This document shows positions 1,553 through 49,718 of a stretch of 53,371 nucleotides of DNA, piece by piece. The translations under genes were made by a program, and so were the position numbers. The notes under the pieces were generated by a model. That model searched no databases. It saw only the letters and a list, made by a program, of their open reading frames with translations, and was not told the origin of the DNA. The DNA is from an uncultured Caulobacteraceae bacterium (GTDB lineage Bacteria > Pseudomonadota > Alphaproteobacteria > Caulobacterales > Aquidulcibacteraceae): assembly GCA_964642205.1 (NCBI GenBank), contig CAZXNY010000001.1, forward strand, positions 1-53,371, in the 5' to 3' direction. The number at the start of each line of letters is the position of its first letter. Position 1 is the first letter of the stretch.

Positions 1553-2365
1553 ATGAATGACCGCGTGAAGATCGACCTCAAGGATGGCGTCGCGGATGTG
1601 CGCCTCGTGCGCGCCGACAAAATGAACGCGCTCGATGACGCGATGTTCGGCGCGCTCGTCGAAGCGGGCGAACATCTGAAAACGGCGAGCGGCGTGCGCG
1701 CCGTCGTGCTTTCGGGCGAAGGGCGCGCGTTTTGCGCTGGGCTCGACATGGGCAATTTCGGCGCGATGGCCTCGGGTGACCGGCGCTCGCGCGACGCAGT
1801 CGCAGCGCCGCCCGCACGCACCGATCGCGGCGCCAATCGCGCGCAGCAGGCCGTGCTCGTGTGGCGTGAAGTGCCCGTGCCGGTGATCGCGGCGGTGCAC
1901 GGCGTTGCGTTCGGCGGCGGCTTCCAACTCGCGCTCGGCGCCGACATGCGTTACGTCGCGCCCGATACGCGCATGGCGATCATGGAGATCAAGTGGGGCC
2001 TCGTGCCGGATATGGCGGGCTTCGTTTTGATGAAGCACCTCGTGCGCGAAGATCTGCTGCGTGAGCTGACGTACACCGGCCGCATCTTCAACGGCGAGGA
2101 AGCGTTCCGCCTTGGGTTCGCGACGCGCGTCTGCACCGATCCGCTCTCGGAAGCGCTGGCTACGGCGGCGGAGATCGCCTCGAAGAACCCGCATGCGCAG
2201 CGCGCCAACAAGCGCCTGTTCGATCTCGCGGCGACGACGGGCGATGAAGGCGCGATCCTGCGCCTGGAGTCGAAAGAGCAAGGCGCGCTGATCGGTTCGC
2301 CCAATCAGATCGAAGCCGTCATGTCCAACATGCAGAAGCGCGATCCGAAATACGCTGAGGTCTAG
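1553..2365 (+). CDS. enoyl-CoA hydratase/isomerase (crotonase) family protein
   Basis: 270 aa with a typical crotonase N-terminus ([46 protein letters not shown]). GGGAGG SD lies 5 nt upstream. Confidence 0.85.
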
Positions 2366-3765
2366 CGGGCAGCTAGGCGCGCGACGAGATCGGCGGCGAA
2401 CGTCGACAACGTATCGTCGCGCGCGCCCATCACGATGATGCGGTCGCCGGCGCGCGCTTCTGCGAGCAGCGCATCGCCGCAAGCCGCGCGCTCTGCAATC
2501 GCGCGCGCGTCCCTGCCCCCCGCGCGCACGCCGGCAGCGATGTCTTCGCTCGTGACGCTGCGATCGACCGTGCCGCCGAAATACGCGGGATCGGGGAGGA
2601 TGAGCAGGTCTTGCGGCGCAAGGTTCTCGGCAAAGCACGCGATGAATTCGTTGCGCATAAGCCGGAGCGGGCCAAAGCCGTGCGGTTGGAACATGATGAG
2701 GAGGCGGCCCGGGAAGGTGTGCAGCGTCGCGAGTGTCGCGGCGATCTTGTCCGGGTTGTGCGCGAAATCGTCAATGACAGTGACACCGGCGGCCGTGCCG
2801 ATCACGTCGAGGCGGCGCTTCACGCCGGCGAATGTCGCGAGCGCGGCGGCCCCTTCTGCGAGCGGCACGCCGGCTGCTTCCGCGGCGAGCAACGCCGCGA
2901 GCGCATTCGACACATTGTGTGCGCCCGGCATGCGCACCGACACGCGCACTGGCGGCCCGCCGCGCGGCACGGCATCGAACGACACGCCATCAGGCGCAGG
3001 CGTGATGTTGCGCGCGAGAAGATCGGCGCTCGCGTCGCTCAAACTATAGGTGCGCGCTTTGCCAGGTGGGAGCAGCGCGCCGAGCGCGGCGGCTTCGCCG
3101 TTGTCGAGATTGATCACGGCCGTCTCGGCTTTGCCGACGAAATCGCCGAACAGTCTGCGCAGCTCGTCCATGCTCTTATGGTCGAGCGCGACGTTGTTGA
3201 GCACGGCGATCTTCGGCGCGTAGCGCGCAATCGAGCCATCGCTTTCATCGACCTCGCTCACGAAGGCGGGCCCTGCGCCAACGAGCGCGCTCGCGAACGG
3301 CGCATCGGGCGTCGCGAAGTTCTTCATCACGGCGCCGTTCATCACGGTGGGGTCGCGGCCAGCGGCGCTGAGCATCCAACCGATCATGCCCGTCGTCGTC
3401 GACTTGCCGCTCGTGCCGCCGATCGCGATCGGCAGCTGCGAAGCGTTGAAGAGCTCGGACAGGAGCTCCGCCCGCCCCTTCAGCGCAGCGCCGACGCGGC
3501 GCGCGGAGACGACATCTGGCACGGTTTCTTCGACGGCGGCGGAGGTGACCACGATCTGATCGGCGCGCGTGACGCCTGAGCCGTCCTGCGGAAACAGCTC
3601 AACGCCCCGGTCCTGCAAATAAGCAAATTTCTGCGCGAGCCGCCCTTGGTCGAGCGAGCGATCCGAGCCCGCGACCTCAGCGCCCCGCGCCCGCACGATC
3701 AGGGCGAGCGGCAGCATGCCGCTGCCGCCAACGCCGCAGAAAAAATAGGATTTGTTGGGACTCAT
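2362..3765 (-). CDS. Mur-ligase family protein, Mpl-like (UDP-MurNAc:tripeptide ligase) or MurC-like
   Basis: I trimmed the listed 697-aa ORF to the internal ATG at 3765 ([17 protein letters not shown], a Rossmann-like N-terminus typical of MurC/Mpl), giving 467 aa. [10 protein letters not shown]-loop is present. The upstream part of the long ORF overlaps the ldcA-like gene and is a GC-shadow. Confidence 0.8.
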
Positions 3766-3834
3766 CGGCGAAGGGTATGAACCGGGCGCGTCACTGACAA
3801 GTGAACGGGCCAGCGCCCCGAAGGTGAAAAGAGC

Positions 3835-4671
3835 ATGAAGATCGCCATCGTTGCGCCGGGCGTGCGCATCGAACCGGAGATGGCCGAAACGGTCCGGGCG
3901 ATCGCAGCGAAAGCATATGGCGCAGGCGCGCCGGAGCTTTACTTCCACCCGCAATGTTACCTCTCGTCCGGCCATTTCGCGGGCGACGATGCGGCGCGGC
4001 TGAAAGCGTTCGTCGATGTCGCCAACGATCCTGCGTTCGACGCAGTCTGGTTCGCACGCGGCGGCTACGGCGCTTGCCGGATCGCGGAGAGCGCCATCGC
4101 CCAGCTGAGCCCGATTGCACGGCGCAAGACGTATCTCGGGTACAGCGACGCAGGCGCACTGCTCGGCGGGCTGTATCGTGCCGGATTCCCGCACGTCGCG
4201 CACGGACCGATGCCAGTCGAGGTGATCCGCGAGGGCGGCGACGCGTGCGTGCTCCGCGCGCTGCGCTTCCTCGTGGAGCGCGCGCCAGACACGATCGAGC
4301 AGAGCGTTTCGAATGAAGCGCCGAGCGCTGCATTCAACATCATGATCCTGCAGCATATCCTGGGCACGCCGCTGGAGCCCGATCTCAGCGGCCACGTGCT
4401 GATGCTCGAAGAGGTCGGCGAATATCTCTATCGGATCGACCGGGCGCTCTTTCACATCACCTCAAGCGCGAATGTGCGGCGCGTGACGGGCATCCGCCTT
4501 GGGCGCTGCAGCGCCGTGCCGAAGAACGATCCGGACTTTGCCGCGACCGAGGAGGATGTGATCCAATACTGGTGCGAGCGCGCGGCAATCCCCTATTTGG
4601 GGCGCGCGGACATTGGGCACGATATCGAGAACAAGATCGCGCCATTTGGCCACTGGCCGCCCCGATCTTAA
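3835..4671 (+). CDS. LD-carboxypeptidase (peptidase S66, LdcA-like)
   Basis: 278 aa with the GYSDAGALL nucleophile-serine motif and a C-terminal GHD..N region typical of S66. AAGGTGA SD is upstream. Divergent from the Mpl-like gene. Confidence 0.8.
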
Positions 4672-4766
4672 GCGGCGCGCTTGTGCGGCGCTTGGCGCCA
4701 AATTAAGCCAGTTCGCAGGGGAAGACGCGATGCGGCGGCGAACGGCTCTGACCATGAGGACGATCC

Positions 4767-7253
4767 GTGCCTGATCCGCGCGGCGAAGCAGAATTGTTCG
4801 ACGCGGCCTCCGCGCTCGTGGGCGGCTATCGGCCGCTATCTGGCGCATATGACGAGATGGTCAGCGTTGACGGTGTGCTGCGCGCGCATTGGCGGCCGTA
4901 CATCGATGGGCTCGCCGCGCTCGGACCGGAGGAACTTGCGCAGCGCGCGGACGCTGTCGCGCGGCGCGTGCGCGAAGCGGGCGTGTTTCACCGCGTCTAC
5001 GGCGCAGAGCGCGATCTTGAACGGCCTTGGCCGCTTTCCTTTGCGCCCGTCGTTATCGATGCGCAGGAATGGCGCGCGATTGAGGCAAGCGTCCAGCAAC
5101 GCGCGCGGTTGATCGAGGCGACGCTCGCGGATGCGTATGGCGCACAGCGCATGATCGGCGAAGGCGTGTTGCCGCCAGCGGTGATCGCAGGCAGCCCGGA
5201 CTTTCTGCGGCCGATGGTGGGCGCCAAGCCCCGTGGCGGGCGCTTCCTGCATTTTTACGCCGCCGATCTCGGGCGCGGGCCAGATGGACGCTGGTGGGTG
5301 CTGCAGGATCGCACGCAAGCGCCCTCCGGCGCGGGCTTTGCGCTGGGCAACCGCGTGGCGCTCTCGCGCGTGCTGCCGGAAACGATGCGCGATCTCGATG
5401 TGCAGCGGCTTGCCGGATTCTTTCAGGCGTTCCGCCAATCGCTCGCCGCGCTCTCGCAGCGCGACATGGGCCGCGTGTGCTTGATGACGCCGGGGCCGTT
5501 CAACGACACCTATTTCGAGCACGCCTATCTCGCGCGCTATCTCGGCTTTCTGTTGGTCGAGGGCGACGACCTCGCGATCCGGAACGACAACGTGTTCGTG
5601 CGCACGGTCGCGGGGCTACGGCAGATCGATGTGCTGGTGCGGCGCGTCGATGCGGACTTCATCGACCCGCTTGAGCTCAATCCTGCGTCCCGGCTCGGCG
5701 CTGCGGGCCTCGCGCGGGCGGCGCGCGCCGGCGCAGTGGCGTTTGCGAACGCGCTCGGGAGCGGAGTCGCTGAAAGCCGCGCGATGATGAGCTTCTGGCC
5801 CCGCCTCGCCGAGCGGCTGCTCGATGAAACGCTGCTGATGCCGAACATCGCGACGTGGTGGTGCGGGCAGGAAGACGCCCGCCGGCATGTGGCGGGGCGT
5901 TTGAGCGAACTTGCCGTGGGCGCTGCGTTTGCGGGCGACTCAGATGGCCCGGTCAATGGCGCGAAGCTTTCCACGAGCGCGCGCGCCGACTTGCTCGCGC
6001 GCATGGCGCGCCGCGGTGGCGACTACGTCGGCCAGGAGATGGTGCGGCTCTCGACGACGCCGGTCTGGCGAGACGGGCGCTTTGCACCGCGGCCGTTCCA
6101 GCTGCGGGTGTTCGCAGCGGCGACCGAGGACGGTGGCTGGACGGTTATGCCTGGCGCGTTCGCGCGCGTCTCGCACGACCTCGATCCACGCGCGATCAGT
6201 TTGCAGCGCGGCGGGGTTTCAGCTGACGCATGGGTGCTCGCAGGCGGGCCCGCGGAAGTGACAACGCTGCTGCCGCAGGCCGGCGCGATCGAGATCATGC
6301 GCCCGCGCGGCGCGCTGACCAGCCGCACGGCGGACAATCTCTTCTGGCTCGGGCGCTATGTGGAGCGCACGGAAGCGACATTGCGTGTGGTGCGCGCGTT
6401 GATTGGCCGCGCGGCGGAGCGCGATCCAGCTGTTCGCGCGGTGTGCGAGCAGTTGATGGCGCTGCTGGTGGCCTGGGGCGGGTTGCCCGCGCCGGAGGAA
6501 GGCGCTGCGCAAGTGTTGCCGCACATTGGCGCGGCAAACGCGCTTGTCGGCGCCGAGCGCACGGGCGCGGCGCTGGCGCTCGCACAAACGGCTTTGCGCA
6601 CGGCGTCCTCCATTCGCGAACGGCTTTCACCCGATGCGTGGCGCACGATCCAAGAACTGCCCGGACTGATCGCGGCGGATGGCGACGTTACCGAGCGCAC
6701 CGACCGCGCGCTGCGCGCCTGCGCGGCGTTTGCCGGCTTTGCACAGGAAAACATGGTGCGCGGCGCGGGCTGGTCGTTCCTCGAAGTTGGGCGGCGGATC
6801 GAGCGCGGGTTGGCGATGACGCGGCTTGTCGGCCAACTCGGCCTTACGCCCGCGTCTTCGGCCGCACTCGATGCGTTGCTCGAATTGGGCGACAGCCAGA
6901 TCACCTATGCGCAGCGTTATTTCGTGACGCCCTCACCCGCCGCGGCGGCGGATTTGCTGTTGTTTGACGAAGGCAACCCACGCGCATGCGCGTTTCAAGC
7001 GGTCCGGCTGCACGAATTGGCCGATCAATTGCCCGAAGGCGCTTCAGGCGACGCGCCAGCCGCGTTTCGCAAGACCGTTGTGCTCATTGAAGCCGCGCTC
7101 GCGAGCGCGAGCCCCGATAGCGCGGATGCTGCGTTTGCGGCGCGGCTCGATGCGGCGTTCCTGCAAGCGGGCGCTGCGTTCTCAGATCTCTATCTCGCCA
7201 ATCGCGACCGGCTGGCGCCGCCGGGCCCCTCAGAAGGGCGCATCGACGGATGA
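4767..7253 (+). CDS. fusion protein: circularly permuted type-2 ATP-grasp domain + alpha-E domain
   Basis: 828 aa. GTG start with GAGGA SD (4756..4760) 6 nt upstream. The N-terminal ~500 aa resemble cpATP-grasp proteins (YDEM...HWRPY, FLHFYAADLGRGPDGRWWVLQDRTQAPSGAGFALGNR). The segment from LTSRTADNLFWLGRYVERTEATLRV (about nt 6310) resembles alpha-E proteins, which are usually encoded separately. Confidence 0.8.
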   Translation: MPDPRGEAELFDAASALVGGYRPLSGAYDEMVSVDGVLRAHWRPYIDGLAALGPEELAQRADAVARRVREAGVFHRVYGAERDLERPWPLSFAPVVIDAQEWRAIEASVQQRARLIEATLADAYGAQRMIGEGVLPPAVIAGSPDFLRPMVGAKPRGGRFLHFYAADLGRGPDGRWWVLQDRTQAPSGAGFALGNRVALSRVLPETMRDLDVQRLAGFFQAFRQSLAALSQRDMGRVCLMTPGPFNDTYFEHAYLARYLGFLLVEGDDLAIRNDNVFVRTVAGLRQIDVLVRRVDADFIDPLELNPASRLGAAGLARAARAGAVAFANALGSGVAESRAMMSFWPRLAERLLDETLLMPNIATWWCGQEDARRHVAGRLSELAVGAAFAGDSDGPVNGAKLSTSARADLLARMARRGGDYVGQEMVRLSTTPVWRDGRFAPRPFQLRVFAAATEDGGWTVMPGAFARVSHDLDPRAISLQRGGVSADAWVLAGGPAEVTTLLPQAGAIEIMRPRGALTSRTADNLFWLGRYVERTEATLRVVRALIGRAAERDPAVRAVCEQLMALLVAWGGLPAPEEGAAQVLPHIGAANALVGAERTGAALALAQTALRTASSIRERLSPDAWRTIQELPGLIAADGDVTERTDRALRACAAFAGFAQENMVRGAGWSFLEVGRRIERGLAMTRLVGQLGLTPASSAALDALLELGDSQITYAQRYFVTPSPAAAADLLLFDEGNPRACAFQAVRLHELADQLPEGASGDAPAAFRKTVVLIEAALASASPDSADAAFAARLDAAFLQAGAAFSDLYLANRDRLAPPGPSEGRIDG

Positions 7254-8134
7254 GGTATCGCATCCGGACCGTCGCTGCGGCGCACTATGATGATGCGGCG
7301 CCGTTTGGCCGCCACTTGCTGCGTGTGAAGCCGCGCGGCGACATGGGGCAGATTCTGCACGAAGCCGCGCTTGAGATTGCGCCCTCGCCCGGCGAACACG
7401 AAGACGGCGTCGATTTCTTCGGCAACAGCGCGACGTGGCTGACGATCGAACGCCCGCACGAAAGCTTTGTCGTACGAACCAGCGCGCAAGTGACCGTGCC
7501 GTTCGCGCCGGAAACGCCGGCGGATGCAACGCCGCGCTGCGATGTGCTGCGCGCGGAAGCGCTGACGCACGCCTCGCTCGATCCGCTCGCGCCCGCGCAT
7601 TTTCTGTTCGCGAGCCGAGTCGTACGCCCGAGCGACGAGATCACTGCGTTTGCGTCGCCGAGCTTTGCGGACGATGCGCCGATCCTTTCCGCCGCGCTCC
7701 ACTTCATGTGGCGCATTCACAATGAGTTTGCATACGACTCCGACGCGACGGACGTCGATACGCGGCCGGAAGCAGCGTTCGCGGCGCGGCGCGGCGTCTG
7801 CCAGGACTTCGCGCATGTGATGATCGCGGGCATGCGCGGACTTGGGCTGCCTGCCGCATATGTCAGCGGCTTCCTGCGCACGCTGCCACCGCCCGGCCAG
7901 CCGCGGCTCGAGGGCGCGGACGCGACGCATGCGTGGGTCGCGGTCTGGTGCGGCGCGGAGATCGGCTGGGTGGGGCTCGACCCGACCAACGACATGCGCG
8001 CCGGGGCCGATCATGTGATCATCGCGATCGGGCGGGATTATGCGGATGTGGCGCCCGAGAGCGGAATCGTCCTGACTTATGGCCCCCAACGGCTCGATGT
8101 GGCCGTGGACGTGGCGCCTTCGGCCGAGGGCTAG
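7250..8134 (+). CDS. transglutaminase-like cysteine protease family protein (with bacterial transglutaminase N-terminal domain)
   Basis: 294 aa. Candidate Cys-His-Asp triad contexts are RRGVCQDFAHV, DATHAWVAVW and GLDPTND. The ATG overlaps the stop of the upstream gene (ATGA at 7250..7253). Confidence 0.85.
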   Translation: MRYRIRTVAAAHYDDAAPFGRHLLRVKPRGDMGQILHEAALEIAPSPGEHEDGVDFFGNSATWLTIERPHESFVVRTSAQVTVPFAPETPADATPRCDVLRAEALTHASLDPLAPAHFLFASRVVRPSDEITAFASPSFADDAPILSAALHFMWRIHNEFAYDSDATDVDTRPEAAFAARRGVCQDFAHVMIAGMRGLGLPAAYVSGFLRTLPPPGQPRLEGADATHAWVAVWCGAEIGWVGLDPTNDMRAGADHVIIAIGRDYADVAPESGIVLTYGPQRLDVAVDVAPSAEG

Positions 8135-13123: not shown

Positions 13124-13597
13124 ATGCCCGCCGCGAAGAAAACCACCACCCGCACGGCCAAGACCGCCGCCGCTGCCGTTGACGCGAACGACACCGCCCG
13201 CCGCATCTGGCTGGCTGGCGTCGGCGCCTATGGCCGCCTCTTCCAGGAAGCCCAAGGCCAAGTCGAAAAGGTCGCCGGCACGGCGAACGAGGCGTTCGAC
13301 CAACTGGTCGCCCGCGGCGAAGCCGTCGAGCACATCGTGCGCGCCAAGATCTCGGAAAACGAAGCCGCTCAGAAGGTGGCCGGCGTCGTTGAGCAGATCA
13401 GCGATTTCCGCGCCGAACGCCGCGCCGCGCTCGAAGCGCGCGTCGAAACCGTCCGCAAAGCGGTTGGCGAAACCATCGCGCCGTTCAATCCGCTCGCGCT
13501 GATGAAGACCGTGCAGACGCTGCAAACGCGCGTCGATGCGCTGGAAGCTGAGGTCGCGCGCTTGAAGCGCCCCGCGCGTAAGACGGCGAAGGCCTAA
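13124..13597 (+). CDS. PHA granule-associated protein (phasin, PhaF/PhaI-type)
   Basis: 157 aa. RRIWLAGVGAYGRLFQEAQ...FDQLVARGE matches my recollection of the Pseudomonas-type phasin N-domain. It has a coiled-coil-like middle and short Lys/Ala-rich ends. GGAGA SD is upstream. Confidence 0.75.
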   Translation: MPAAKKTTTRTAKTAAAAVDANDTARRIWLAGVGAYGRLFQEAQGQVEKVAGTANEAFDQLVARGEAVEHIVRAKISENEAAQKVAGVVEQISDFRAERRAALEARVETVRKAVGETIAPFNPLALMKTVQTLQTRVDALEAEVARLKRPARKTAKA

Positions 13598-14187
13598 GCT
13601 CGCGCCAGCGCCGCTACCGGAGCCATCACTTCGGCGGCGGCGCGCGCGATGCGCGCTTTTGCCGGCGCATCGTCGCCTTCCAGATCGAGCTGCGTGAGTT
13701 TGAAGCCGAGTCCGAGCGTGACCGCGCGGGCGAGGCCATCGAGCACGGCGGGATCGGTGGGAAGTACGCCGCGCGCTGCCAAGCAAGCGAGCATGTGCGC
13801 CGCACCCGCGTCGAACGCCGCGAACACGCGCGCGTAGCGATCGGAAAGCCCCGGAAAAAGCTGCGCAAGCGCGCCCGCTTCGCGAAACAGGAACCGGACG
13901 TCATGGCCCTCTTCCATCAGGATATGGACATGCACCGCCATCGTTTCGATGCTGGCGCCGTCACTCTCCATTTCGCCACACGCGGCTTCGAGCACGAGCG
14001 AAAGCTCGCTCTCGTAGACGTCGAACAAGGCGGCCACGATCTCGGCCTTGCCTTTGAAATGGTAGTAGAGGTGACCAGGGCTTATGCCGAGCGCTGACGC
14101 GATATCGACCGCGCTCGCGGACGCTGCGCCCTCTTCGTTAAAGAGGTCGAGCGCGCCGGCCAGAATGCGATCCTTAATGCTAGCCAC
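13594..14187 (-). CDS. TetR-family transcriptional regulator (PhaD-like position in the PHA cluster)
   Basis: Trimmed to the GTG at 14187 (VASIKDRILAGALDLFNEEGAASASAVDIASALGISPGHLYYHFKGK, a TetR helix-turn-helix). GGGGAG SD lies 5 nt upstream. 197 aa. Confidence 0.8.
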   Translation of the reverse strand: MASIKDRILAGALDLFNEEGAASASAVDIASALGISPGHLYYHFKGKAEIVAALFDVYESELSLVLEAACGEMESDGASIETMAVHVHILMEEGHDVRFLFREAGALAQLFPGLSDRYARVFAAFDAGAAHMLACLAARGVLPTDPAVLDGLARAVTLGLGFKLTQLDLEGDDAPAKARIARAAAEVMAPVAALARA

Positions 14188-14335
14188 GGGGCTCCCCTCG
14201 GGCGCGCTCTCGCTCGGGCCGAAGCGCATTGACTTAGACGCATACAGCGCCGCACCTTTCCTCATCTTGAACCGAACAGGCGAAACTGGGCGGCCGGCGC
14301 GACGGCCAAAGACCCGGGTCGCAGGGAGACGTCCG

Positions 14336-16060
14336 ATGGCCAAAGACAAGCTCGATTTGGGCGGAGACGCGCCTGACAATGTGGTGGCGCTGAACCCGAT
14401 CGTGGGGCTCGCGCGCGAAGACCTCGTCGGCGCCGTGGCCGTGATGCTGCGCGAAACAGCGGGAAAACCCGTGACCGGCGCCAAGCACCTCAAGTCGTTC
14501 GGCGAAGATGTGCTGAAGATCGTTCAGGACAAATCGGAACTTGCGCCCAACCCGCGCGACAAGCGCTTCCTCGATTCCACGTGGCGCACGAACCGCTTCT
14601 ACAAAGCGAGCATGCAATATTACCTCGCCGTCCAGAAAGGCGTGGACGGCTGGATGAAGGATCTGCACCTCGACGAGCTTGAGCGCGCGCGTGCGAACTT
14701 CGTTGTGTCGATGCTGATGGATTCAATTTCGCCGACGAACACGCTGATCGGCAACCCGTCGGCCATCAAGAAAGCGTTCGAGACCGGCGGCGGCTCGCTT
14801 ATTCGCGGCCTCAAGAACGCCTATACGGACATCACCGAGAACGACGGCCTGGTGAGCCAGGTCGATAAGCGCCCGTTCAAGATCGGCGAGAACGTCGCCG
14901 TCTCGAAGGGCTCAGTCGTCCATCGCACGGAGATGATGGAGCTGATCCAGTATCAGCCGACCACGCCGGACGTGCACAAGATTCCGCTGCTGATCATCCC
15001 GCCGCAGATCAACAAGTTCTACGTGAACGATCTGACGCCGGAAAAGAGCATCGTGAAATTCCTGCTCGAAGCGGGCATTCAGGTGTTCGTCGTCAGCTGG
15101 CGCAATCCGGAGGCGGAGCATCGCGACTGGGGCCTCGGCGCATATGTCGATCAACTGATCGAAGCGACGGATGTGATCGCGCAGATCACCAAGACCAAGA
15201 AGATCAACGTTTCGGGCGCGTGCTCGGGCGGGATCACCACCGCGACGCTTTTGTCGAAGCTTGCGGCGGCGGGCGACAAGCGCGTCAACTCCGTCGTGCT
15301 GATGGTGTGCGTGCTCGATCCGCGCGCGAACGATAGCGAAGTCGGCTCGCTCGTGTCGAAAAACGGCATCGAGATGGCGCGGCGGCGCTCCGCGAAGAAG
15401 GGCGTGCTGGAAGGCGCATCGCTCGCGCGCACGTTCGCGTGGCTGCGGCCGAACGATCTGGTCTGGAACTACGTCGTCAACAACTACCTACATGGCGAGG
15501 ATCCGCCGCCGTTCGACGTGCTGTTCTGGAACAACGATTCCACAAACCTCCCCGCCGCGCTGCATTCGGATTATCTGCGCGTGTACGAAGAGCAGCCGTT
15601 TACGCGGCCAGGCGAAGTCGAGCTTGCTGGCCACAAGGTCGATCTCACCAAGGTCACGCAAGATACGTTCATCGTTGGCGGCGTGACCGATCACATCACG
15701 CCGTGGAAAGCGTGCTATCGCGCCACGCAATTGCTGGGCTCGGAGAACATCGAGTTCATCCTCTCGCACAGCGGACACATTCAGGCGTTGCTCAATCCGC
15801 CCGGTAATCCGAAGGCGAAATATTATCGCAACACCAACAAGCCGCCGGCCGATGTCGATCAATGGATGATGGCGGGCGCGAGCGAGAACGCTGGCTCGTG
15901 GTGGCCGCTTTGGAAGGAATGGCTCGTCGCGCGCTCGGGCGAACAGAAGCCCGCGCCGAAGAAAGTCGGCTCCGTCAAATATCCGCCGGGCGATGCAGCG
16001 CCGGGCCAGTACGCGCTGACGCCAAGCAAGGCGACTCGCCGCAAAAAGAAGACCGCATGA
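14336..16060 (+). CDS. phaC: class II-like poly(3-hydroxyalkanoate) synthase
   Basis: Trimmed to the ATG at 14336 (AGGGAGA SD), giving 574 aa. Long blocks match my recollection of Pseudomonas PhaC1: LNPIVGL, ELIQYQPTT, PLLIIPPQINKFYV, VSWRNP, lipase box GACSGG, FAWLRPNDLVWNYVVNNYL, FWNNDSTNLPAA, DHITPWKACY, SGHIQALLNPPGNPK. Confidence 0.9.
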   Translation: MAKDKLDLGGDAPDNVVALNPIVGLAREDLVGAVAVMLRETAGKPVTGAKHLKSFGEDVLKIVQDKSELAPNPRDKRFLDSTWRTNRFYKASMQYYLAVQKGVDGWMKDLHLDELERARANFVVSMLMDSISPTNTLIGNPSAIKKAFETGGGSLIRGLKNAYTDITENDGLVSQVDKRPFKIGENVAVSKGSVVHRTEMMELIQYQPTTPDVHKIPLLIIPPQINKFYVNDLTPEKSIVKFLLEAGIQVFVVSWRNPEAEHRDWGLGAYVDQLIEATDVIAQITKTKKINVSGACSGGITTATLLSKLAAAGDKRVNSVVLMVCVLDPRANDSEVGSLVSKNGIEMARRRSAKKGVLEGASLARTFAWLRPNDLVWNYVVNNYLHGEDPPPFDVLFWNNDSTNLPAALHSDYLRVYEEQPFTRPGEVELAGHKVDLTKVTQDTFIVGGVTDHITPWKACYRATQLLGSENIEFILSHSGHIQALLNPPGNPKAKYYRNTNKPPADVDQWMMAGASENAGSWWPLWKEWLVARSGEQKPAPKKVGSVKYPPGDAAPGQYALTPSKATRRKKKTA

Positions 16061-21613: not shown

Positions 21614-23769
21614 CTATTCGCCGAACGAGTAGACGACCCGCGCCCCATATTGCCGCGGCGCCCCGTAGAGCAAGCCGCCGTCCGAGCTGGACGAGTTCTG
21701 CACCTGCGATGCGATGTAGCGCTCATCGAGCAGATTCGAGACAAAGCCCTCGATGCGCCAAGCCGCATTCGGCTCATACGTGAGGCGCGCATCCCAAACC
21801 GTGCGGCCATCGACTCGTGTCGCCGCACTCGGGAACGGCGTCGCGACCTGATCAGTCATCGCCGACACTTGCAGGCGCGGCGTCAGCACGCTTTCGCCGA
21901 AGCGGAAGTCGTACTGAATGCCGGCGCTGCCGGTCCATTGCGGCGAGAACGGCAGATCGCGGCCAACCGGCACGATCTCGTTCTGGCCAGACACTGTGTT
22001 TTGCAGCGTCGAGACTTCCGAGAACGTGGCGTCGAGGTAAGCGACGCCTGCGTTCAGCATCAGATCTCCGAAGACGGCCTGCATTTCCAACTCGGCGCCA
22101 GACGATTCGCCCGCGGCCGCGTTGCGTGTGCGCGGGGCGCCGTTCACCAGCGCGGCGAACTGGATGTCTTCGTATTCTGAAGTAAACACATCGCCGTTGA
22201 GCCGGAAACGCCCGTCAAGCAACGTCGCTTTGAAGCCGATTTCCGTGACGAGGTTTGTTTCCGGGGCGAAGACGCCGTCCGTAACGACGAGGTTCACACC
22301 GCCCGCCTTGTAGCCACGCGCGACCGACGCATAGACCAGCAGGTCATCCGTCGGCGTGAAGTTGAGCGCGACGCGGCCTGTGGTGGCTTCCGAGTTGGCG
22401 ATCCCGAAGCCCGCGCCCGGCGGCGGCGCGACGTAGCGCGTATATTCTTGCGAGTCTTCTGAGTACCGCGCGCCGACGCTGAGTTCGAGTTGCGGCGTGA
22501 ACGCGTAGGAGAACTGCCCGAACACCGATTCCGAGAAATTGTCGGCGTCGGTCATCGTCGTGTTGTTCGCGGGGAACACCGGCACGTCGCAAACCGGGCG
22601 GGCCGGCAGCGCGCAATTGAAGCGGCGCAGGAAGACCGGAATGTTTTCTTGCATCGCGAAGGCGCCGACCACCCATTGGAACGGGCCATCGCCTGTCGAG
22701 ACGATGTTGAGCTCGTTCACGAGCGTGTTGATGCGCGTCAGCGCGTATCCAAGCCGTGCGCCTTGCGGTGGACTTGCGGGATTGGCCGGCACGGAGCTCG
22801 TGCGATCGCCATCGGCCTGATCTTCGTTGTAGCTGTACTGATAGCTTGTCAGCCAACGGATCTGCGCTTCTTCCCACGCATCCCAGCGCGCCTCGAACGT
22901 CGTGCGATAGCCCGCGTTTGCAGATTGAACGAACGGCCGTCCTCGCGGATGCGGAAGGGTTCGGGATCGGGATCGTTGCGGTTCTTGATCGCGTTGTAGT
23001 CGCTGTCGCTCCGGAAATATTCATGGCTCAGGTTGAACGAAAGCTCGTCCAGCGGCTGAAACAGCGCGTGAACCCGGAAGCCGTGGAAGAGAACATTGCC
23101 CGGGTCCGACGATGAGGAGCCGACATTGTCGGTGAAACTGTCGCGCGTGTCGTAAATGCCGGCGACGCGAACGGCCAAATTGTTCGTCAGCGGAATATTG
23201 AGGGCGCCGACGGTGCGGCTCAGCGAATAATCTCCGACCGTCTGATCGATGTATCCGCCCCACGTGCCAATCTCCGGCGCACGTGAGCGCACATAAAGCG
23301 CGCCGCCGGTTGAGTTCTGCCCCGACAGCGTGCCTTGCGGGCCGCGCAGGATTTCAACCTGGCCGATGTCGTAGAACGAGCCGCCGATGGTCTGTTCGTG
23401 CGGGACGAGCGCGCCGTTGAAGTAATACGCAACGCCGGGCGAGGACGTTGGCGCCGACTGCGCGATGCCGACGCCGCGAATGTTGATGAACGTTGAGCGG
23501 TTGAACGTGTTGATCGCGATGCTCGGGGAGACCTGCTGCAGATCGGCGACGTTATCGACGCCCTGGCGCGCGAGCGCGTCGGCGTTGAGGACGGTCGCGG
23601 AGATCGGCACGTCCTGCAGGCTTTGCTCGCGGCGCTCCGCCGTGATCACGACGTCTTCGACGACGTTGCCGCTTTGCGCGTGGGCGGGAGCTGCGATCCC
23701 CGCCGCGAGCGCCAATGTGGCCGAGCCAAACAGGAATGCAGCCCGTGCGGGCTTCACCGAAGCAGTCAT
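21614..23769 (-). pseudogene. TonB-dependent receptor interrupted by a single frameshift (or a sequencing error)
   Basis: ORF 22849..23769 carries the signal peptide and plug (VVITAERREQSLQDVPISATVL). ORF 21614..22792 carries the barrel. By hand translation the C-terminal frame is open back to a stop at 23021..23023 and reads ...NAGYRTTFEARWDAWEEAQIRWLTSYQYSYNEDQADGDRTSSVPANPA. The N-terminal frame reads ...PFRIREDGRSFNLQ and then becomes Arg-rich nonsense. The frames switch at minus-strand CTGCAAACGCGG (plus 22912..22923), consistent with loss of one A from CAAAAC. Confidence 0.75.
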
Positions 23770-25382: not shown

Positions 25383-26498
25383 ATGTCCGTGACACTCCTC
25401 GCCGTTGGCGATGTCGGCATTTGCCGCGCAAAGCCCGAAACGATGCTCGACGGCGTGCGCGATGCGCTGCGCCGAGGCGGCGTTGTGTTTGGCCAATTGG
25501 AGACCACCGTTTCCGAGCGCGGCGCGCGCGCGCCGCACGCCAAACTCGCGATGCGCTCGCCGCCTGCAATGCTGCGCGCGTGCGCGAAAGCCGGCTTCGA
25601 TGCGATGTCGTTCGCAGGCAACCATTGTATGGATTGGGGGCGCGAGGCGTTCGATGACACGTTCGCGCATGCGCACGCGGCGAACATAGCGCTGTGCGGC
25701 GCGGGCGAGACACTCGCCGAGGCGCGTGCGCCGGTGGTGGTTGCGAAGAACAGCGTGCGCATCGCGTTCGTCGCGGTGAGTTCGATCTTGCCGGATGGGT
25801 ATTGGGCTGAGGCGCAGCGGCCCGGCTGCGCGCCGATGCGCGCGTTCACGCATTACGAGATGATCGAGCACGATCAGCCGGGCACGCCGCCACGCATTCA
25901 CACGACACCGCATCCAGGCGATCTAAGGCGCTTGCGCGAAGACATCGGCGCAGCGCGCGCGATGGCGGACGTCGTTGTGCTCTCGATCCATTGGGGCATT
26001 CATCTCGTGCCGGCCGAAATCGCGGCCTATCAGCACGAGGTCGGGCGCGCCGCTATTGATGCGGGCGCCGATCTCGTGCTCGGGCACCATCCGCATATTC
26101 TGAAGGGCGTTTCGTTTCATCGCGGCAAGCCGATCTTCTTCAGCATGGGCAATTTCGCGATCGAGCAGCCGCAGGCTTGGGATCCGGCGATCCTGCAGCA
26201 TCACTCGTTCAAGCAGTTGATGGCGCTCAATCCGGATTTCGATTTGGAGAGCGCGTATCTCCTGCCGCCGGACACACGGCACACGATGATCGCACGTGCG
26301 GAGTTGAGCGCGGGCGGTGTCGCGGGCGTGTCGTTCCTGCCCTGTTGGATCAATGACCGGTCCGAGCCGCAACTCTTATCAGCCAGCGATCCGAAGTTCG
26401 ATGCAGTTGTCGCCTATATGCGCGCGATTACGGAAAGCCAGGGGCTCAACGCGCGCTATGTGGTTGAGGGCGGCGCAGTGCAGGTCCTGCCGCTTTAG
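25383..26498 (+). CDS. CapA/PgsA-like (PGA_cap, metallophosphatase-fold) family protein
   Basis: 371 aa. LLAVGDVG...FGQLETTV...SFAGNHCMDWG...VLSIHWG...DLVLGHHPH matches the CapA-family metal-ligand pattern. No SD is present in the 45 nt upstream. Confidence 0.75.
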   Translation: MSVTLLAVGDVGICRAKPETMLDGVRDALRRGGVVFGQLETTVSERGARAPHAKLAMRSPPAMLRACAKAGFDAMSFAGNHCMDWGREAFDDTFAHAHAANIALCGAGETLAEARAPVVVAKNSVRIAFVAVSSILPDGYWAEAQRPGCAPMRAFTHYEMIEHDQPGTPPRIHTTPHPGDLRRLREDIGAARAMADVVVLSIHWGIHLVPAEIAAYQHEVGRAAIDAGADLVLGHHPHILKGVSFHRGKPIFFSMGNFAIEQPQAWDPAILQHHSFKQLMALNPDFDLESAYLLPPDTRHTMIARAELSAGGVAGVSFLPCWINDRSEPQLLSASDPKFDAVVAYMRAITESQGLNARYVVEGGAVQVLPL

Positions 26499-29400
26499 TG
26501 GAAGTTACGCCCGCCCGGCATCGCAATCTCGATCCGCTGCGCCACCTCTTCCCGCACGCGCGAGCCCTGCGCGCCGCGCTTTCCTTCATCGATCTTGCTC
26601 GGCGGTTCAAGCGCATCGCCCCCGGTCGCGAGCAAACGCAGCAGCCGCGTCTCGTCACGCACGCGCTCGGCCACGACATGCACGACGCCGCTCTGGTTTT
26701 GCACACGCCCTTCGACCACAGCGAAGCGCGAACCGAGCACCTCGGCGCGAAACTTCTCGAACACGTTGGGCCAGACGATCGTGTTGGCGATATAAGTCTC
26801 GTCTTCCAGCGTCATGAAGATGACGCCCTTCGCCGTTCCCGGCCGCTGGCGCACCAGCACAAGACCACCGACGCGCACAAACGCGCCATCCGGCGCCGAC
26901 GCGAGATCCTCCGCGCGCATGATGCGGCGCGCATCGAGTTCGGGACGGAGCAACTTTGCCGGATGCGCTTTGAGCGAGAGCGACAGGCTCGCATAGTCCT
27001 CGACGATGTGTTCACCGATCGGCATGCGCGGGAGATTGTAATCCGGCTCGCGCGTCGGATCGAATTGCGGAGCGAACAACGGGAGATTTTCCTGTCCGCC
27101 GACGCGGCCAAGCCCTCGCGCGGCCCAAAGCGCAGCGCGCCGGTCGAGCCCAAGCGAGCGGAACGCATCGGCGTTCGCCAGCGTCTCGATCGCGGCGGGC
27201 GAAATGCCGCCGCGCAGCCAAAGATCGCGCACTGAATCGTAGCCCGCGCTGCGATTGGCGACGAGCTGGCGCATCTCCTCTTCGCTCAGCCCCTTGGCTT
27301 GCCGAAACCCGAGCCGGAGCGCGGCGGTGGTGCGTATATCCCCGCGCATATCGGCGTGGCGCTTATGCAGGTGCGTGGCGGCGGTGCGGCCATCGTCTTC
27401 GAGCGTGCAATCCCAGTCGGAGCGATTCACATCGACTTCACGCACCTCGACGCCATGATCTTGCGCGTCGCGGACGATCTGCGCGGGCGCGTAAAAGCCC
27501 ATTGGTTGCGCGTTGATAAGCGCGGCGGCGAATACGTCCGGGTAATGGCATTTGAGCCAGGACGAGACGTAAACCAGGATCGCGAAGCTCGCCGCGTGGC
27601 TTTCGGGGAAGCCATATTCGCCGAAGCCTTCGATCTGGCTAAAGCTGCGCTCGGCGAACTCCCGCTCGTAGCCTTTTGCGATCATGCCGTTGATGAACTT
27701 GTCTTTCAGCAAGCCGATGGTGCCGACGCGCTTGAACGTCGCCATCGCGCGGCGGAGCTTATCGGCTTCAGGCGCCGTGAAGCCGGCGGCCACGATGGCG
27801 ATCTGCATCGCCTGTTCCTGGAAGAGCGGCACGCCGAGCGTACGGTGGAGCACGCGTTCAAGCTCTTTGCTGGGATATGTGACCTTCTCGATGCCCTGCT
27901 TGCGCTTCAGATAGGGATGCACCATGCCGCCCTGAATTGGCCCCGGACGGACGATCGCGACTTCGATCACGAGATCGTAGAATTTCTCCGGCCGCAGGCG
28001 TGGCAGCATCGACATCTGCGCGCGGCTCTCGACTTGGAAGACACCGAGCGAATCCGCGCGCTTCAACATTTCGTAGACGCGGTCTTCCGTTGGCGGCAGC
28101 GCAGCGATCGAGAGCGGTTTTTCGTCTGGATAATGCGTCGCGACGAGGTCGAACGCTTTGCGGATGCAGGTGAGCATCCCCAGCCCCAGGAGATCGACCT
28201 TGAGGATCCCGAGCGCCTCCAGATCGTCCTTATTCCATTCCACCACAGTGCGATCGTCCATCGCGGCGTTCTGGATCGGCACGACATCGTCCAGCCGCTC
28301 GCGCGTGATGACGAAGCCCCCGACATGTTGTGAGAGGTGCCGTGGGAAGCCCTGCAGCTCACTCGCGAGCGCGAGGCACGCCATGAGCTTACGATCGGCT
28401 ATGTCGAGGCCGATCTCCGTCAGGTCTTCTTCCGTGACGTCCTTCGTCCACCAATGGAAAAGTTTGGCGAGCGAGCCTATGCGGTCTTCGGAATAGCCGA
28501 ACGCTTTGGCGACTTCGCGGATGGCGCTCCGGCCGCGATAGCAGATCAGCGTCGCCGCAAGCCCGGCGCGGTGGCGACCATAGGTGTGGTAGACATACTG
28601 GATCGCTTCTTCGCGCCGTTCATGCTCGAAATCGACATCGATATCCGGCGGCTCGTTGCGCTCGACAGAGAGGAAACGCTCGAACAGCAAATCGTTTTCC
28701 GCTGGATCGACGGCAGTCACCCCGAGGCAGTAACAGATCGTTGAGTTCGCCGCCGAGCCGCGGCCCTGGCAGAGGATCGGCGGCACGTCCTGCCCGTCGA
28801 TGGTCTTGCCGGACCGCGCGAAGCGCACGATGTCGTGCACCGTGAGAAAATACGGCGCATATTTGAGTTCGGCGACGATGCCGAGCTCATGCACGATCGC
28901 GGCGCGGACTTTGTCGGGCACGCCATCCGGGTAGCGTTCCGCGGCGCCTTTCCAGGTGAAGGCCTCGAGCGCTTCTTGTGGGGAGGCGAAACCGGCTTTG
29001 GTTTCTTCCGGATATTCGTAGCGCAGCTCATCCATTGAGAAGTTGAGCCCGTCCAGGAACCGCATCGTTTCGTCGACGGCGCCGGGCATGTCTTTGAAGA
29101 GGCGCGCGATCTCTCGCGGCTCCTTGAGGTGGCGCTCGGCATTTGCTTCGAGCAGCCGCCCGGCCGCGTCGAGCGTGGTTTTCTCGCGGATGCAGGTGAC
29201 GACATCGAGGAGCGGCTTGCGGTCAGCGGTATGAATGAGCGGCGCCGTCGTCGCGATCAGGCGCGCGCCGGATTGCGAAGCGATCTCCGCCAGCGCGCGG
29301 CGGCGGCGCGCATCGGCGCCATCATAAACGGTGGGCGCGGCGAGCCAGACGGCGCCCGCGTGCGCTGCGATCTCGCGCAGCAGCGGCGTGAGCCCGGCCG

Positions 29401-29788
29401 TTTCCGACCCGGGCACAACGATTGTCTGCATCCCCTCTGCGTGCGCGAGAAAATCTTCGCGCGTGAGGAAGCACTGCCCTTTCGGGGCGCGGCGGTTGCC
29501 GAGCGTGAGCAGCCGGCACATACGCGCATAGGCGGCGCGGTCCTTCGGGTAGATCAGAATGTCCGGCGTTTCGTCGGTGAACACGAGGCGCGTGCCGATC
29601 GCGAGCCGGAGCTTCTGCTCCTTCGCCATGACATGCGCGCGCACCACACCTGCGAGCGTGCAGCGATCGGCGACGCCGACGCCAGCGAGACCTAAGCGCT
29701 TGGCTTCCGCGACCATCTCATCGGGATGCGATGCGCCGCGCAGGAACGAAAAGTTCGTGGTGAGCGCGAGTTCTGCAAACGCCGTCAT
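26495..29788 (-). CDS. dnaE2: error-prone DNA polymerase III alpha-subunit paralogue DnaE2 (ImuC)
   Basis: Trimmed to the ATG at 29788 (MTAFAELALTTNFSFLRGASHPDEMV, the canonical PHP-domain start), giving 1097 aa. It lies immediately downstream of imuA-imuB. Confidence 0.92.
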   Translation of the reverse strand: MTAFAELALTTNFSFLRGASHPDEMVAEAKRLGLAGVGVADRCTLAGVVRAHVMAKEQKLRLAIGTRLVFTDETPDILIYPKDRAAYARMCRLLTLGNRRAPKGQCFLTREDFLAHAEGMQTIVVPGSETAGLTPLLREIAAHAGAVWLAAPTVYDGADARRRRALAEIASQSGARLIATTAPLIHTADRKPLLDVVTCIREKTTLDAAGRLLEANAERHLKEPREIARLFKDMPGAVDETMRFLDGLNFSMDELRYEYPEETKAGFASPQEALEAFTWKGAAERYPDGVPDKVRAAIVHELGIVAELKYAPYFLTVHDIVRFARSGKTIDGQDVPPILCQGRGSAANSTICYCLGVTAVDPAENDLLFERFLSVERNEPPDIDVDFEHERREEAIQYVYHTYGRHRAGLAATLICYRGRSAIREVAKAFGYSEDRIGSLAKLFHWWTKDVTEEDLTEIGLDIADRKLMACLALASELQGFPRHLSQHVGGFVITRERLDDVVPIQNAAMDDRTVVEWNKDDLEALGILKVDLLGLGMLTCIRKAFDLVATHYPDEKPLSIAALPPTEDRVYEMLKRADSLGVFQVESRAQMSMLPRLRPEKFYDLVIEVAIVRPGPIQGGMVHPYLKRKQGIEKVTYPSKELERVLHRTLGVPLFQEQAMQIAIVAAGFTAPEADKLRRAMATFKRVGTIGLLKDKFINGMIAKGYEREFAERSFSQIEGFGEYGFPESHAASFAILVYVSSWLKCHYPDVFAAALINAQPMGFYAPAQIVRDAQDHGVEVREVDVNRSDWDCTLEDDGRTAATHLHKRHADMRGDIRTTAALRLGFRQAKGLSEEEMRQLVANRSAGYDSVRDLWLRGGISPAAIETLANADAFRSLGLDRRAALWAARGLGRVGGQENLPLFAPQFDPTREPDYNLPRMPIGEHIVEDYASLSLSLKAHPAKLLRPELDARRIMRAEDLASAPDGAFVRVGGLVLVRQRPGTAKGVIFMTLEDETYIANTIVWPNVFEKFRAEVLGSRFAVVEGRVQNQSGVVHVVAERVRDETRLLRLLATGGDALEPPSKIDEGKRGAQGSRVREEVAQRIEIAMPGGRNFH

Positions 29789-29793
29789 CGCCG

Positions 29794-31326: not shown

Positions 31327-31990
31327 TCCACTCCAAATCGAGCGTGCGCGGGCGCACGCCAGCGCGGTGGCGCATCAATTCCGCCGTAAGCGACGGCGCG
31401 CCGATTTCGTCGCGATGCGGCGTGCGGGACGGCGCGGGCGCGATGCGCCAGCGCGTCCACGCCGAACTCGTCGGCGCCGCGCGCATGAACTCCGGGCGCC
31501 CGCAATCGCCGCGCAGGATGAGCGCGGAAGCGCCATGCGCTTCGGCTGCAAGGCTGAGCCGGCGCGTGGCCGTGAGATCGATGGGCTTGCCGCGCGCGCC
31601 CAACTCCAAGAGCACGCGCACGCCGGGGCGCTTGAGGGCCTCTTCGGCCGCCCAGAGCGCCTCCACACGCTTCTGCGCGCGGACCAGCAGAATGCTGGCC
31701 GGATCCGCGAGCGCCGAGAAACCGGGCGCGTAAAGCTCACCATGTTCAGCGCTGGCGGCCGCTTCGCGCACCCACACCGTCCACCGCGCAGGGCTCGAAG
31801 CGCCGAGCAAGAAAAAGAGCGCCGTCCCCTCACCGCCCCAGGCCGGAAAAGCTTCATGCACCCGGCCTGCAGCGAGCCGGGGCAACGAGGCGCCCGTGGC
31901 CAAATCCCAAGAAAAATCCTCCGCTTGCGAGCGCAGGGCCCGCTCAGCGGAGGCTGCCCCAAAGGGCAAGACAGGCAGGGAGGCCGACAT
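31196..31990 (-). CDS. imuA: ImuA (RecA/SulA-fold SOS protein)
   Basis: 264 aa, first gene of the cassette, directly preceded by a LexA box. VHEAFP...GTALFFLL and LLELGARGKPIDLTATRRLSLAAEAHGASALILR resemble the ImuA family. The 3' 131 nt overlap imuB. Confidence 0.75.
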   Translation of the reverse strand: MSASLPVLPFGAASAERALRSQAEDFSWDLATGASLPRLAAGRVHEAFPAWGGEGTALFFLLGASSPARWTVWVREAAASAEHGELYAPGFSALADPASILLVRAQKRVEALWAAEEALKRPGVRVLLELGARGKPIDLTATRRLSLAAEAHGASALILRGDCGRPEFMRAAPTSSAWTRWRIAPAPSRTPHRDEIGAPSLTAELMRHRAGVRPRTLDLEWSDDGFRIAESRSAASSNEALGGDLAPATVNGSADQDGRRRAVG

Positions 31991-49627: not shown

Positions 49628-49718
49628 CGCCACCGGTGTTCCGGGCCGTGCGGTGCTTGTCAATTGCATCTGCCAGAGGCGCGGCGCGCATCTCACGTGC
49701 GACTTGGGGGACACAATC

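Follow-up and report, generated by a model that had tools for sequence, protein, structure and literature searches.

An intact ATP-grasp/Alpha-E fusion gene and its transglutaminase-like partner in an uncultured Caulobacteraceae bacterium, members of a widespread bacterial module

Introduction

We analysed a 53,371-nt stretch of DNA from an uncultured Caulobacteraceae bacterium, referred to here as the window, in which two overlapping genes encode a predicted ligase fused to an Alpha-E domain and a small transglutaminase-like protein. Upstream of them lie genes for an LdcA-like carboxypeptidase and a Mur-type ligase, which the initial annotation took as a hint that small peptides are the substrate. 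The locus raises the question of what such a gene pair does, and whether its neighbours are a guide to the answer.

The module to which the pair belongs was defined by Valas & Bourne in 2008 (PMC3235984). In agreement with the initial annotation, the literature that we searched reports no substrate or phenotype for the ligase and Alpha-E components. The Anbu papers also cite Iyer et al. (2009) for its definition. Rv2569c of M. tuberculosis is presumably the homologous small transglutaminase-like protein. The Anbu operon of Yersinia bercovieri encodes a stand-alone homologue that liberates phosphate from ATP, and pull-downs in this species gave no stable complex of the operon's proteins (PMC6376114). 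In a 2026 preprint, the M. tuberculosis homologues Rv2411c and Rv2567 were expressed, and GABA-trehalose, the sole small-molecule product tested, was not made. Rv2569c has been reported to be a serine-type protease that is not blocked by cysteine-protease inhibitors; this is the sole functional claim on a partner protein in the literature searched, and the paper does not address the ligase (PMC11081392).

The fusion gene and its transglutaminase-like partner

The fusion gene occupies positions 4767..7253 of the forward strand, on which all features described below also lie, and encodes an 828-aa protein that combines an ATP-grasp with an Alpha-E domain, as supported by the ORF listing, Pfam, AlphaFold2 and dN/dS. 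Its GTG start is consistent with the lengths of its homologues (816-847 aa) and is preceded by a Shine-Dalgarno-like GAGGA, read from the sequence at 4756..4760, 6 nt 5' of the GTG. These features had been described before, and the domain assignments made with them were borne out by profile searches of the 828-aa protein. The circularly permuted ATP-grasp families (Pfam PF14403/PF04174) match its N-terminal part, CP_ATPgrasp_2 over the full profile (positions 1-374 of 374, E 3e-142, 474.5 bits against a curated cut-off of 32) and CP_ATPgrasp_1 with E 2e-93. The CP_ATPgrasp_2 match places this domain at residues 94-469 (5046..6173), and its identity is supported by PDB 3n6x and by Foldseek. Alpha-E (PF04168), which had been suspected from about nt 6310, was found at residues 517-804 (6315..7178) with E 2.6e-57 and 195 bits against a cut-off of 20.8. 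It includes two Glu-Arg motifs, E533-R534 (nt 6363-6368) and E679-R680 (nt 6801-6806), that are invariant in 56 homologues. In the same sequence comparison, many charged residues of the ATP-grasp domain are invariant in 56 homologues too, examples being R170, D181, R182, E251, R257, D268, R279, R292, R293, D295, D300, N328 and E336.

The AlphaFold2 model of the fusion protein has a pLDDT of 83.7 and a pTM of 0.81. PDB 3n6x, which is matched by sequence over fusion residues 27-491 (E 2.5e-74), is also the top Foldseek match of the modelled ligase half (TM 0.84), followed by the eukaryotic-type glutathione synthetases of human, plant and yeast (E 1e-11 to 1e-8) and by Cp1B, YgiC and trypanothione synthetase. 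The ligase half is therefore predicted to adopt a glutathione-synthetase-like permuted ATP-grasp fold. Its fold neighbours are small-molecule amide ligases, namely glutathione and homoglutathione synthetases, the epoxysuccinate-amino acid ligase Cp1B, YgiC and trypanothione synthetase-amidase (Foldseek; PMC12568646). The Alpha-E region of the model consists of helices only (residues 519-816) and had no significant fold match in the PDB, where Foldseek returned nothing better than E 0.5.

The second gene (7250..8134) encodes a 294-aa transglutaminase-like putative cysteine peptidase/transamidase, identified from the ORF listing, Pfam and AlphaFold2. It carries Bact_transglu_N (PF08379) at residues 3-81 (nt 7256-7492) and Transglut_core (PF01841) at residues 146-245 (nt 7685-7984). 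The catalytic codons that the initial annotation had proposed from their contexts, C184 in GVCQDFAH (7799-7801), H227 in DATHAWV (7928-7930) and D244 in GLDPTND (7979-7981), are all invariant in 36 homologues, and in alignments with PDB 3isr and 6g49 they fall on the Cys/His/Asp motifs of these proteins. The AlphaFold2 model (pLDDT 93) matches 3isr along its full length (Foldseek E 1.5e-20), and other fold matches include TgpA, TG2, TG3, PNGase and LapG. Read by eye, the N-termini of both proteins lack a signal-peptide-like look.

The TGA of the fusion gene and the ATG of the transglutaminase-like gene share a 4-nt ATGA overlap at 7250..7253, read from the sequence. Identical overlaps occur in the close relative L001, in L082/L083, L085 and L086, and in several two-gene loci. 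The overlapping genes are probably translationally coupled, as had been suggested. Relative to L001, which is 92-93% identical, the fusion gene has a dN/dS of 0.058 and its transglutaminase-like partner one of 0.046, so both are under strong purifying selection. Going by these values and by profile E-values that lie far beyond chance, both genes are real and intact.

Distribution of the module

With both genes intact, the locus is an ordinary example of the ATP-grasp/Alpha-E/transglutaminase-like module (COG2308/COG2307/COG1305), which is widespread in bacteria. The initial annotation was right that ATP-grasp and Alpha-E form a single protein here; it was mistaken in treating the fusion as a special feature. 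Among the best 120 protein clusters, all 120 are fused ATP-grasp/Alpha-E proteins of about 790-870 aa, and the fused form was found in 80 of 80 sampled species-representative genomes. It is the standard architecture in Alphaproteobacteria, and databases already carry a name for it.

In 79 of the 80 species genomes, as in the window, the next gene after the fusion gene on the same strand is the small transglutaminase-like gene. Directly upstream of the fusion gene, 69 of 80 loci have a transglutaminase-DUF2126 gene of about 1100 codons. This gene is not in the window: when a DUF2126 protein was searched against the whole window by tblastn, only the small transglutaminase-like gene was matched. 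Two-gene forms without the DUF2126 partner were also found in Hyphomonadaceae, Caulobacterales, Phenylobacterium, Methylocapsa/Methylocella and Sinorhizobium medicae loci, and hence turn up in several separate lineages. No recurrent third partner of the two-gene loci was found, their flanks being unrelated housekeeping genes.

The description of the module as an orphan stands, in that the large ORFs of the window include no DUF2126 gene, no match to the Anbu/proteasome family and no second transglutaminase. More generally, the Anbu peptidase is a frequent but non-obligatory associate of the module, and in this organism one may be encoded outside the window. Split clusters have been described as part of a nitrogen-limitation (NtrC/sigma-54) regulon: those of Burkholderia cenocepacia and Pseudomonas putida are responsive to nitrogen limitation or to the nitrogen source. 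Upstream of the S66 (LdcA-like) and fusion genes of the window, we found no sigma-54 site resembling TGGCAC-N5-TTGCW with up to two mismatches allowed. A role in anti-phage defence was considered and set aside, as PADLOC gave no hits.

The Mur-ligase/LdcA neighbourhood

The S66 gene ends 95 nt upstream of the fusion gene on the same strand. Its product contains the N- and C-terminal domains of Peptidase_S66 (Pfam) and is close to PDB 3g23, an LD-carboxypeptidase A (E 9e-81). By sequence homology it is an LdcA-type carboxypeptidase, with a score of 64 bits against an NCBIfam cut-off of 378 for the E. coli-type equivalog. The neighbouring Mur ligase falls below both relevant curated cut-offs and scores nearer to murC (260 bits, cut-off 335) than to mpl (141 bits, cut-off 389). 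The divergent pair of Mur ligase and LdcA homologue is kept in 54 of 54 loci and is a conserved module of its own; this conserved divergent pairing would fit the Mur ligase being a recycling ligase.

When neighbours of the pair were searched by tblastn, no gene for S66, the Mur ligase, the M20 peptidase or the CoA-transferase lay near the module in any of 80 genome loci, and the S66/Mur-ligase neighbourhood is likewise absent from the three relatives at 55-57% identity that we examined. The reverse scan from the S66 protein found no fusion gene downstream of the LdcA homologue in any of 40 informative loci. The co-occurrence of the fused form with a mpl/ldcA neighbourhood, which had been offered as a clue to the substrate, is thus confined to near relatives of at least 92% identity. 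In one of these, L001 (92%), the S66, M20 peptidase, fusion and transglutaminase-like genes are tightly packed on one strand, and the M20 protein has a signal-peptide-like N-terminal start. In the window lineage a deletion has removed the M20 gene from between S66 and the fusion gene.

Proposed mechanism and alternative explanations

We consider the gene pair to be best explained as a synthetase and thiol-amidase couple that acts on a small molecule or short peptide, and regard this as moderately probable. The predicted fold relatives of the two proteins point to an ATP-dependent small-molecule/peptide amide ligase and a thiol amidase/transamidase. The ATP-grasp half would convert a carboxylate to its acyl-phosphate at the expense of ATP and then join it to an amine, giving an amide or isopeptide bond. 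The fused Alpha-E half, with its two invariant Glu-Arg motifs, may be an obligatory accessory domain that binds the substrate or regulates the enzyme. The transglutaminase-like enzyme, probably co-translated with it, would attack the amide with its Cys184-His227-Asp244 triad via a thioester intermediate, leading to hydrolysis or transfer. Together, the two proteins may form a couple analogous to glutathionylspermidine/trypanothione synthetase-amidase, most likely with a cytoplasmic small molecule or short peptide as substrate. In favour of this model, besides the fold relatives, are the strict gene pairing, the invariant triad and Glu-Arg motifs, the low dN/dS, the phosphate release by the Yersinia homologue and the N-termini without a signal-peptide look. 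Weighing against it are the pull-downs that gave no stable complex, the failure of Rv2411c and Rv2567 to make GABA-trehalose and the serine-type activity reported for Rv2569c.

A link between the module and the proteasome-like Anbu peptidase exists in other taxa (PMC3235984), and one original prediction, as summarised in the Anbu papers (PMC5666114; PMC6376114), was protein tagging: the ATP-grasp/Alpha-E protein would place an amino acid or peptide tag on protein carboxylates or lysines, in a pupylation-like manner, for the transglutaminase-like enzyme to take off or pass on. Transglutaminase-fold enzymes do often act on proteins, and the fold matches here include TG2, TG3, PNGase and LapG. 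However, by Foldseek the ligase half is structurally nearest to small-molecule ligases, and the sole protein/peptide-modifying ATP-grasp among its fold matches, PsnB, is marginal (E 0.09). No Anbu gene was found among the large ORFs of the window, the module contains no small tag-like gene, and experiments have found neither a complex nor a substrate (PMC6376114). We think that tagging is unlikely. More doubtful by far is that the transglutaminase-like protein is an independent general or secreted protease, incidentally linked to the ligase. Rv2569c is reported to degrade casein, fibronectin and E-cadherin (PMC11081392), but the invariant Cys-His-Asp triad is at odds with its assignment there as a serine protease. 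The transglutaminase-like gene also adjoins the fusion gene in all but one of 80 genomes, often overlapping it, and the absence of a signal-peptide look from its product argues against secretion.

We judge it very improbable that, in this lineage, the module acts on murein-derived peptides alongside the LdcA-like carboxypeptidase and the Mur-type ligase encoded upstream. The proximity of the S66 gene, the close homology of its product to 3g23 and the tight packing in L001 favour it, and a crude, uninformative scan found no terminator-like site between the S66 and fusion genes. Against it stand the absence of this neighbourhood from all 80 other module genomes and from the 55-57% relatives, and the 40 LdcA loci that have no fusion gene downstream while the Mur-ligase/LdcA pair itself is constant. 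Moreover, the M20 gene was lost in the window lineage while the fusion/transglutaminase-like pair stayed under purifying selection, and the M20 protein of L001 begins in a signal-peptide-like way. A related reading is that a small lineage recruited the module into an operon with the LdcA-like carboxypeptidase, formerly together with the M20 peptidase, and that it ligates or remodels short peptides, whether derived from murein or not. There is little chance that this is so; if it were true, the ATP-grasp/Alpha-E/transglutaminase family would gain its first class of substrates, and the two-gene form would show that the fusion and the small transglutaminase-like protein are a self-sufficient core.

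The useful outcome of the analysis is therefore a negative one, namely that the peptidoglycan-recycling neighbourhood is no guide to the substrate. The question of what this very widespread module does dates from about 2008-2009, and a substrate would be valuable, although the present locus adds little to the question. Since the fusion, the coupling to the small transglutaminase-like gene and the two-gene form are all common, one could start just as well from thousands of other loci, some of them in rhizobia and Caulobacterales that are genetically tractable.

Comparison with known systems

The solved structures closest to the two proteins both carry labels that are only 'putative'. For the ligase half this is PDB 3n6x (Methylobacillus flagellatus Mfla_0391, 'putative glutathionylspermidine synthase'), a stand-alone ATP-grasp without Alpha-E, whereas the two are fused here; for the transglutaminase-like protein it is PDB 3isr, a putative cysteine protease of Cytophaga hutchinsonii. 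Glutathionylspermidine/trypanothione synthetase-amidase and E. coli YgiC are related in their ATP-grasp-type ligase fold (E 5e-6 to 3e-4 by Foldseek), but are remote, with 10-11% identity, and lack an Alpha-E domain. In synthetase-amidase, an ATP-dependent amide synthetase is paired with a thiol amidase, the same logic as that proposed here. The amidase of the glutathionylspermidine/trypanothione enzymes is a CHAP domain fused to the synthetase, not a separate protein of transglutaminase fold, and the likeness would be an analogy of mechanism, not family membership.

Among gene clusters, the Anbu-linked modules of other taxa differ from the window in having an Anbu peptidase, and the nitrogen-responsive split clusters differ in that no sigma-54-like promoter was found upstream here. 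The three-gene alphaproteobacterial cluster, to which the Rv2566-Rv2569c region of M. tuberculosis presumably corresponds in type, has a large Bact_transglu_N + Transglut_core + DUF2126 'putative amidoligase' gene, then the fused ATP-grasp/Alpha-E gene and then the small transglutaminase-like gene. Its last two genes are orthologous to the window pair (43-60% identity), whereas its DUF2126 gene is absent from the window. The locus has all three domain families of the COG2308/COG2307/COG1305 module as a whole, arranged in that module's gene order, and both its catalytic triad and its Glu-Arg motifs are intact; ATP-grasp and Alpha-E are one polypeptide here, which is itself the common alphaproteobacterial form.

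Two conserved genes for a candidate ligase and its partner

The fusion gene (4767..7253, + strand) encodes 828 aa from a GTG start 6 nt downstream of a GAGGA motif (4756-4760, +), and it is followed by a transglutaminase-like gene (7250..8134, +; 294 aa) whose ATG start overlaps the fusion-gene TGA in an ATGA (7250-7253, +), exactly as described in the initial annotation. The domain identities proposed there were also right. The Pfam profile search placed CP_ATPgrasp_2 at residues 94-469 (entire 374-position profile, E 3e-142) and Alpha-E at residues 517-804 (nt 6315-7178, +; E 2.6e-57) of the fusion protein, and Bact_transglu_N and Transglut_core at residues 3-81 and 146-245 of the transglutaminase-like protein. 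The putative triad that had been suggested for the latter (C184, H227 and D244) showed no variation across 36 homologues and, on alignment, coincides with the catalytic motifs of two PDB entries, 3isr and 6g49; in Alpha-E, both Glu-Arg motifs (E533-R534 and E679-R680) were invariant in 56 homologues. Against a 92-93% identical relative, the fusion gene had a dN/dS of 0.058 and the transglutaminase-like gene one of 0.046, values which argue firmly that both genes are functional.

Distribution of the fused pair

The fusion had been regarded as distinctive, but it proved to be the usual arrangement. A protein-collection search with the fusion protein gave 7791 matches at E <= 1e-10, and the best 120 clusters were all about 790-870 aa with the identical three Pfam domains, under the names 'circularly permuted type 2 ATP-grasp protein' (NCBI) or a double ATP-grasp/alpha-E name (JGI). 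A scan of species-representative genomes, skewed to the best matches, turned up at least 599 related stretches; the best 80 were 43-53% identical and fused in 80/80 cases. With neighbour genes detected by tblastn thresholds, the small transglutaminase-like gene lay directly 3' of the fusion gene in 79 of these 80 loci, and the remaining one stops at a contig edge. The locus, whose identity was correctly assigned at the outset, belongs to a known, very common kind, and is no better for testing the open question of function than many other loci.

De novo clustering of flanking ORFs identified a third conserved gene, directly 5' and on the same strand, in 69/80 of the best loci; its product of ~1100 aa carries Bact_transglu_N, Transglut_core and DUF2126 ('putative amidoligase'). 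Across the whole 53-kb window there was no DUF2126 sequence, and Pfam found neither a proteasome/Anbu-like protein nor a second transglutaminase among the window's other large ORFs. DUF2126 was also missing from nine loci whose upstream flank is complete, and from Hyphomonadaceae and Caulobacterales relatives (55-57% identity). The two-gene form, consisting of the fusion and small transglutaminase-like genes only, is not unique to the window. Two-gene loci are flanked by unrelated genes and occupy at least four separate places on a neighbour-joining tree for which no bootstrap support was computed.

Predicted structures

In the AlphaFold2 model of the fusion protein (56 input sequences; pLDDT 83.7, pTM 0.81), the N-terminal half is mixed alpha/beta and the C-terminal half all-helical, with a low-confidence linker at residues 508-514 between them. 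The best Foldseek PDB match of the N-terminal half was 3n6x (E 8.5e-27, TM 0.84). This half also matched glutathione and homoglutathione synthetases of the eukaryotic type (E 1e-11 to 1e-8), as well as trypanothione synthetase-amidase, YgiC from E. coli and the fungal ligase Cp1B. Cp1B is an ATP-grasp enzyme coupling epoxysuccinate to an amino acid, with an architecture likened to glutathione synthetases (PMC12568646). The Alpha-E half gave nothing significant with Foldseek against the PDB (best E above 0.5) despite a high-confidence all-helical prediction for the domain (window 6315-7178), and its fold appears to be structurally uncharacterised. The transglutaminase-like model (pLDDT 93) matched 3isr over its full length (Foldseek E 1.5e-20), with remoter matches to TgpA, TG2/TG3, LapG and PNGase.

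Proposed function and upstream neighbourhood

In the best-supported model, the fusion protein would be an ATP-dependent amide ligase acting via an acyl-phosphate intermediate, with Alpha-E as its obligatory accessory domain, and the paired Cys-His-Asp thiol amidase or transamidase would act on the ligase product. Protein tagging by the module is the main rival; the fold neighbours of the ligase half make a small molecule or a short peptide a likelier substrate than a protein. As judged by eye, neither protein has a signal-peptide-like N-terminus, which suggests that the pair is probably cytoplasmic.

The initial annotation had speculatively pointed to small peptides as the substrate because of mpl/ldcA-like neighbours thought to recycle peptidoglycan peptides. 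These are an S66 gene (3835-4671, +), whose product is closely homologous to PDB 3g23 ('LD-carboxypeptidase A'; E 9e-81), and a divergent Mur ligase gene (2362-3780, -). The Mur ligase scored 260 bits for murC and 141 bits for mpl, under both curated NCBIfam cut-offs and nearer murC, and may represent an alphaproteobacterial type of murein-peptide recycling ligase outside current equivalog models. Among all sequences examined, the full neighbourhood was common only to the 92% relative, L001; the S66 gene is visible at the contig edge of a 97% relative (L086), L087 is an L001-like metagenome contig, and three examined relatives at 55-57% identity have other neighbours around the module. In a reverse scan that took the S66 protein as its query and covered 80 metagenome loci (55-89% identity), a divergent Mur ligase lay <400 nt from the S66 homologue in 54/54 loci with enough upstream sequence, and the fusion gene was downstream of S66 homologues in 0/40 loci having at least 3 kb of downstream sequence. 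These counts show that the Mur-ligase/LdcA pair is a conserved module of its own and that the adjacency of the fusion gene is a recent, local event. The neighbourhood thus lends the murein-peptide proposal no support, and we give it a low probability, as a lineage-specific function.

In L001, the S66 and fusion genes are separated by a 467-aa M20 peptidase gene (5876-7279), whose product has a signal-peptide-like N-terminus as judged by eye. Within the S66-to-fusion stretch of the window (4672-4774), the M20 ribosome-binding site and first codons persist as a 14-codon stub ORF (4730-4774; MRRRTALTMRTIRA*) that overlaps the fusion-gene GTG start, remnants which show that M20 was lost by a ~1.4-kb deletion in the window lineage. 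Another peptidase-plus-ligase neighbour was seen only once, in the Caulobacterales MAG L085, where a divergent Peptidase_Mx and D-Ala-D-Ala-ligase-like ATP-grasp pair (5664-7753, -) adjoins the two-gene module upstream.

Other features of the window

Just 3' of the module region is a polyhydroxyalkanoate cluster (13124-16060) with phasin (13124-13597) and PhaC synthase (14084-16060) genes, between which L001 has an extra TetR-family gene. A TonB-dependent receptor apparently lies in two adjoining ORFs (21614-22792, -, and 22849-23769, -), with the Plug domain on one and the beta-barrel on the other, which suggests a frameshift, pseudogene or sequencing error. Three consecutive same-strand ORFs (26495-31990, -) resemble an imuA/imuB/dnaE2 damage-inducible mutagenesis cassette; their products are a 1146-aa DnaE2-like DNA polymerase III alpha, a 510-aa ImuB-like protein of the IMS family and a 264-aa protein with no Pfam match. 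A peptide-uptake and peptide-degradation cluster (43548-50017, -) encodes an ABC ATPase of the oligopeptide/dipeptide type (43548-45227, -), a solute-binding protein of family 5 (46866-48353, -) and another M20 peptidase (48350-50017, -), distinct from the one deleted beside the fusion gene.

Comparison with known systems

A 2026 preprint expressed Rv2411c and Rv2567, with the sole result that no GABA-trehalose was made. No report of a substrate of the ligase was found in the searchable literature. Rv2569c is presumably the small transglutaminase-like protein of the M. tuberculosis cluster. It reportedly acts as an E-cadherin-cleaving protease on which cysteine-protease inhibitors have no effect (PMC11081392). 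PMC3235984 gave the first description of the gene association, and papers on Anbu describe an operon of ATP-grasp, Alpha-E, transglutaminase and Anbu, calling the functional hypotheses unconfirmed (PMC6376114, PMC5666114). The Y. bercovieri ATP-grasp liberates phosphate from ATP, and complexes among the operon proteins were not detected (PMC6376114). The Anbu operon is dispensable, and Anbu is induced in P. putida under nitrogen limitation (PMC5666114). The B. cenocepacia cluster, which encodes DUF404/DUF407, DUF403, transglutaminase-like and large transglutaminase-like proteins, is dependent on NtrC and sigma-54 (PMC5491218), whereas a scan for sigma-54-like sites (TGGCAC-N5-TTGCW, up to 2 mismatches) found none upstream of the S66 or fusion genes of the window. 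In P. putida, expression of PP_2685 and PP_2688 is higher with nitrate than with ammonium (PMC8050072).
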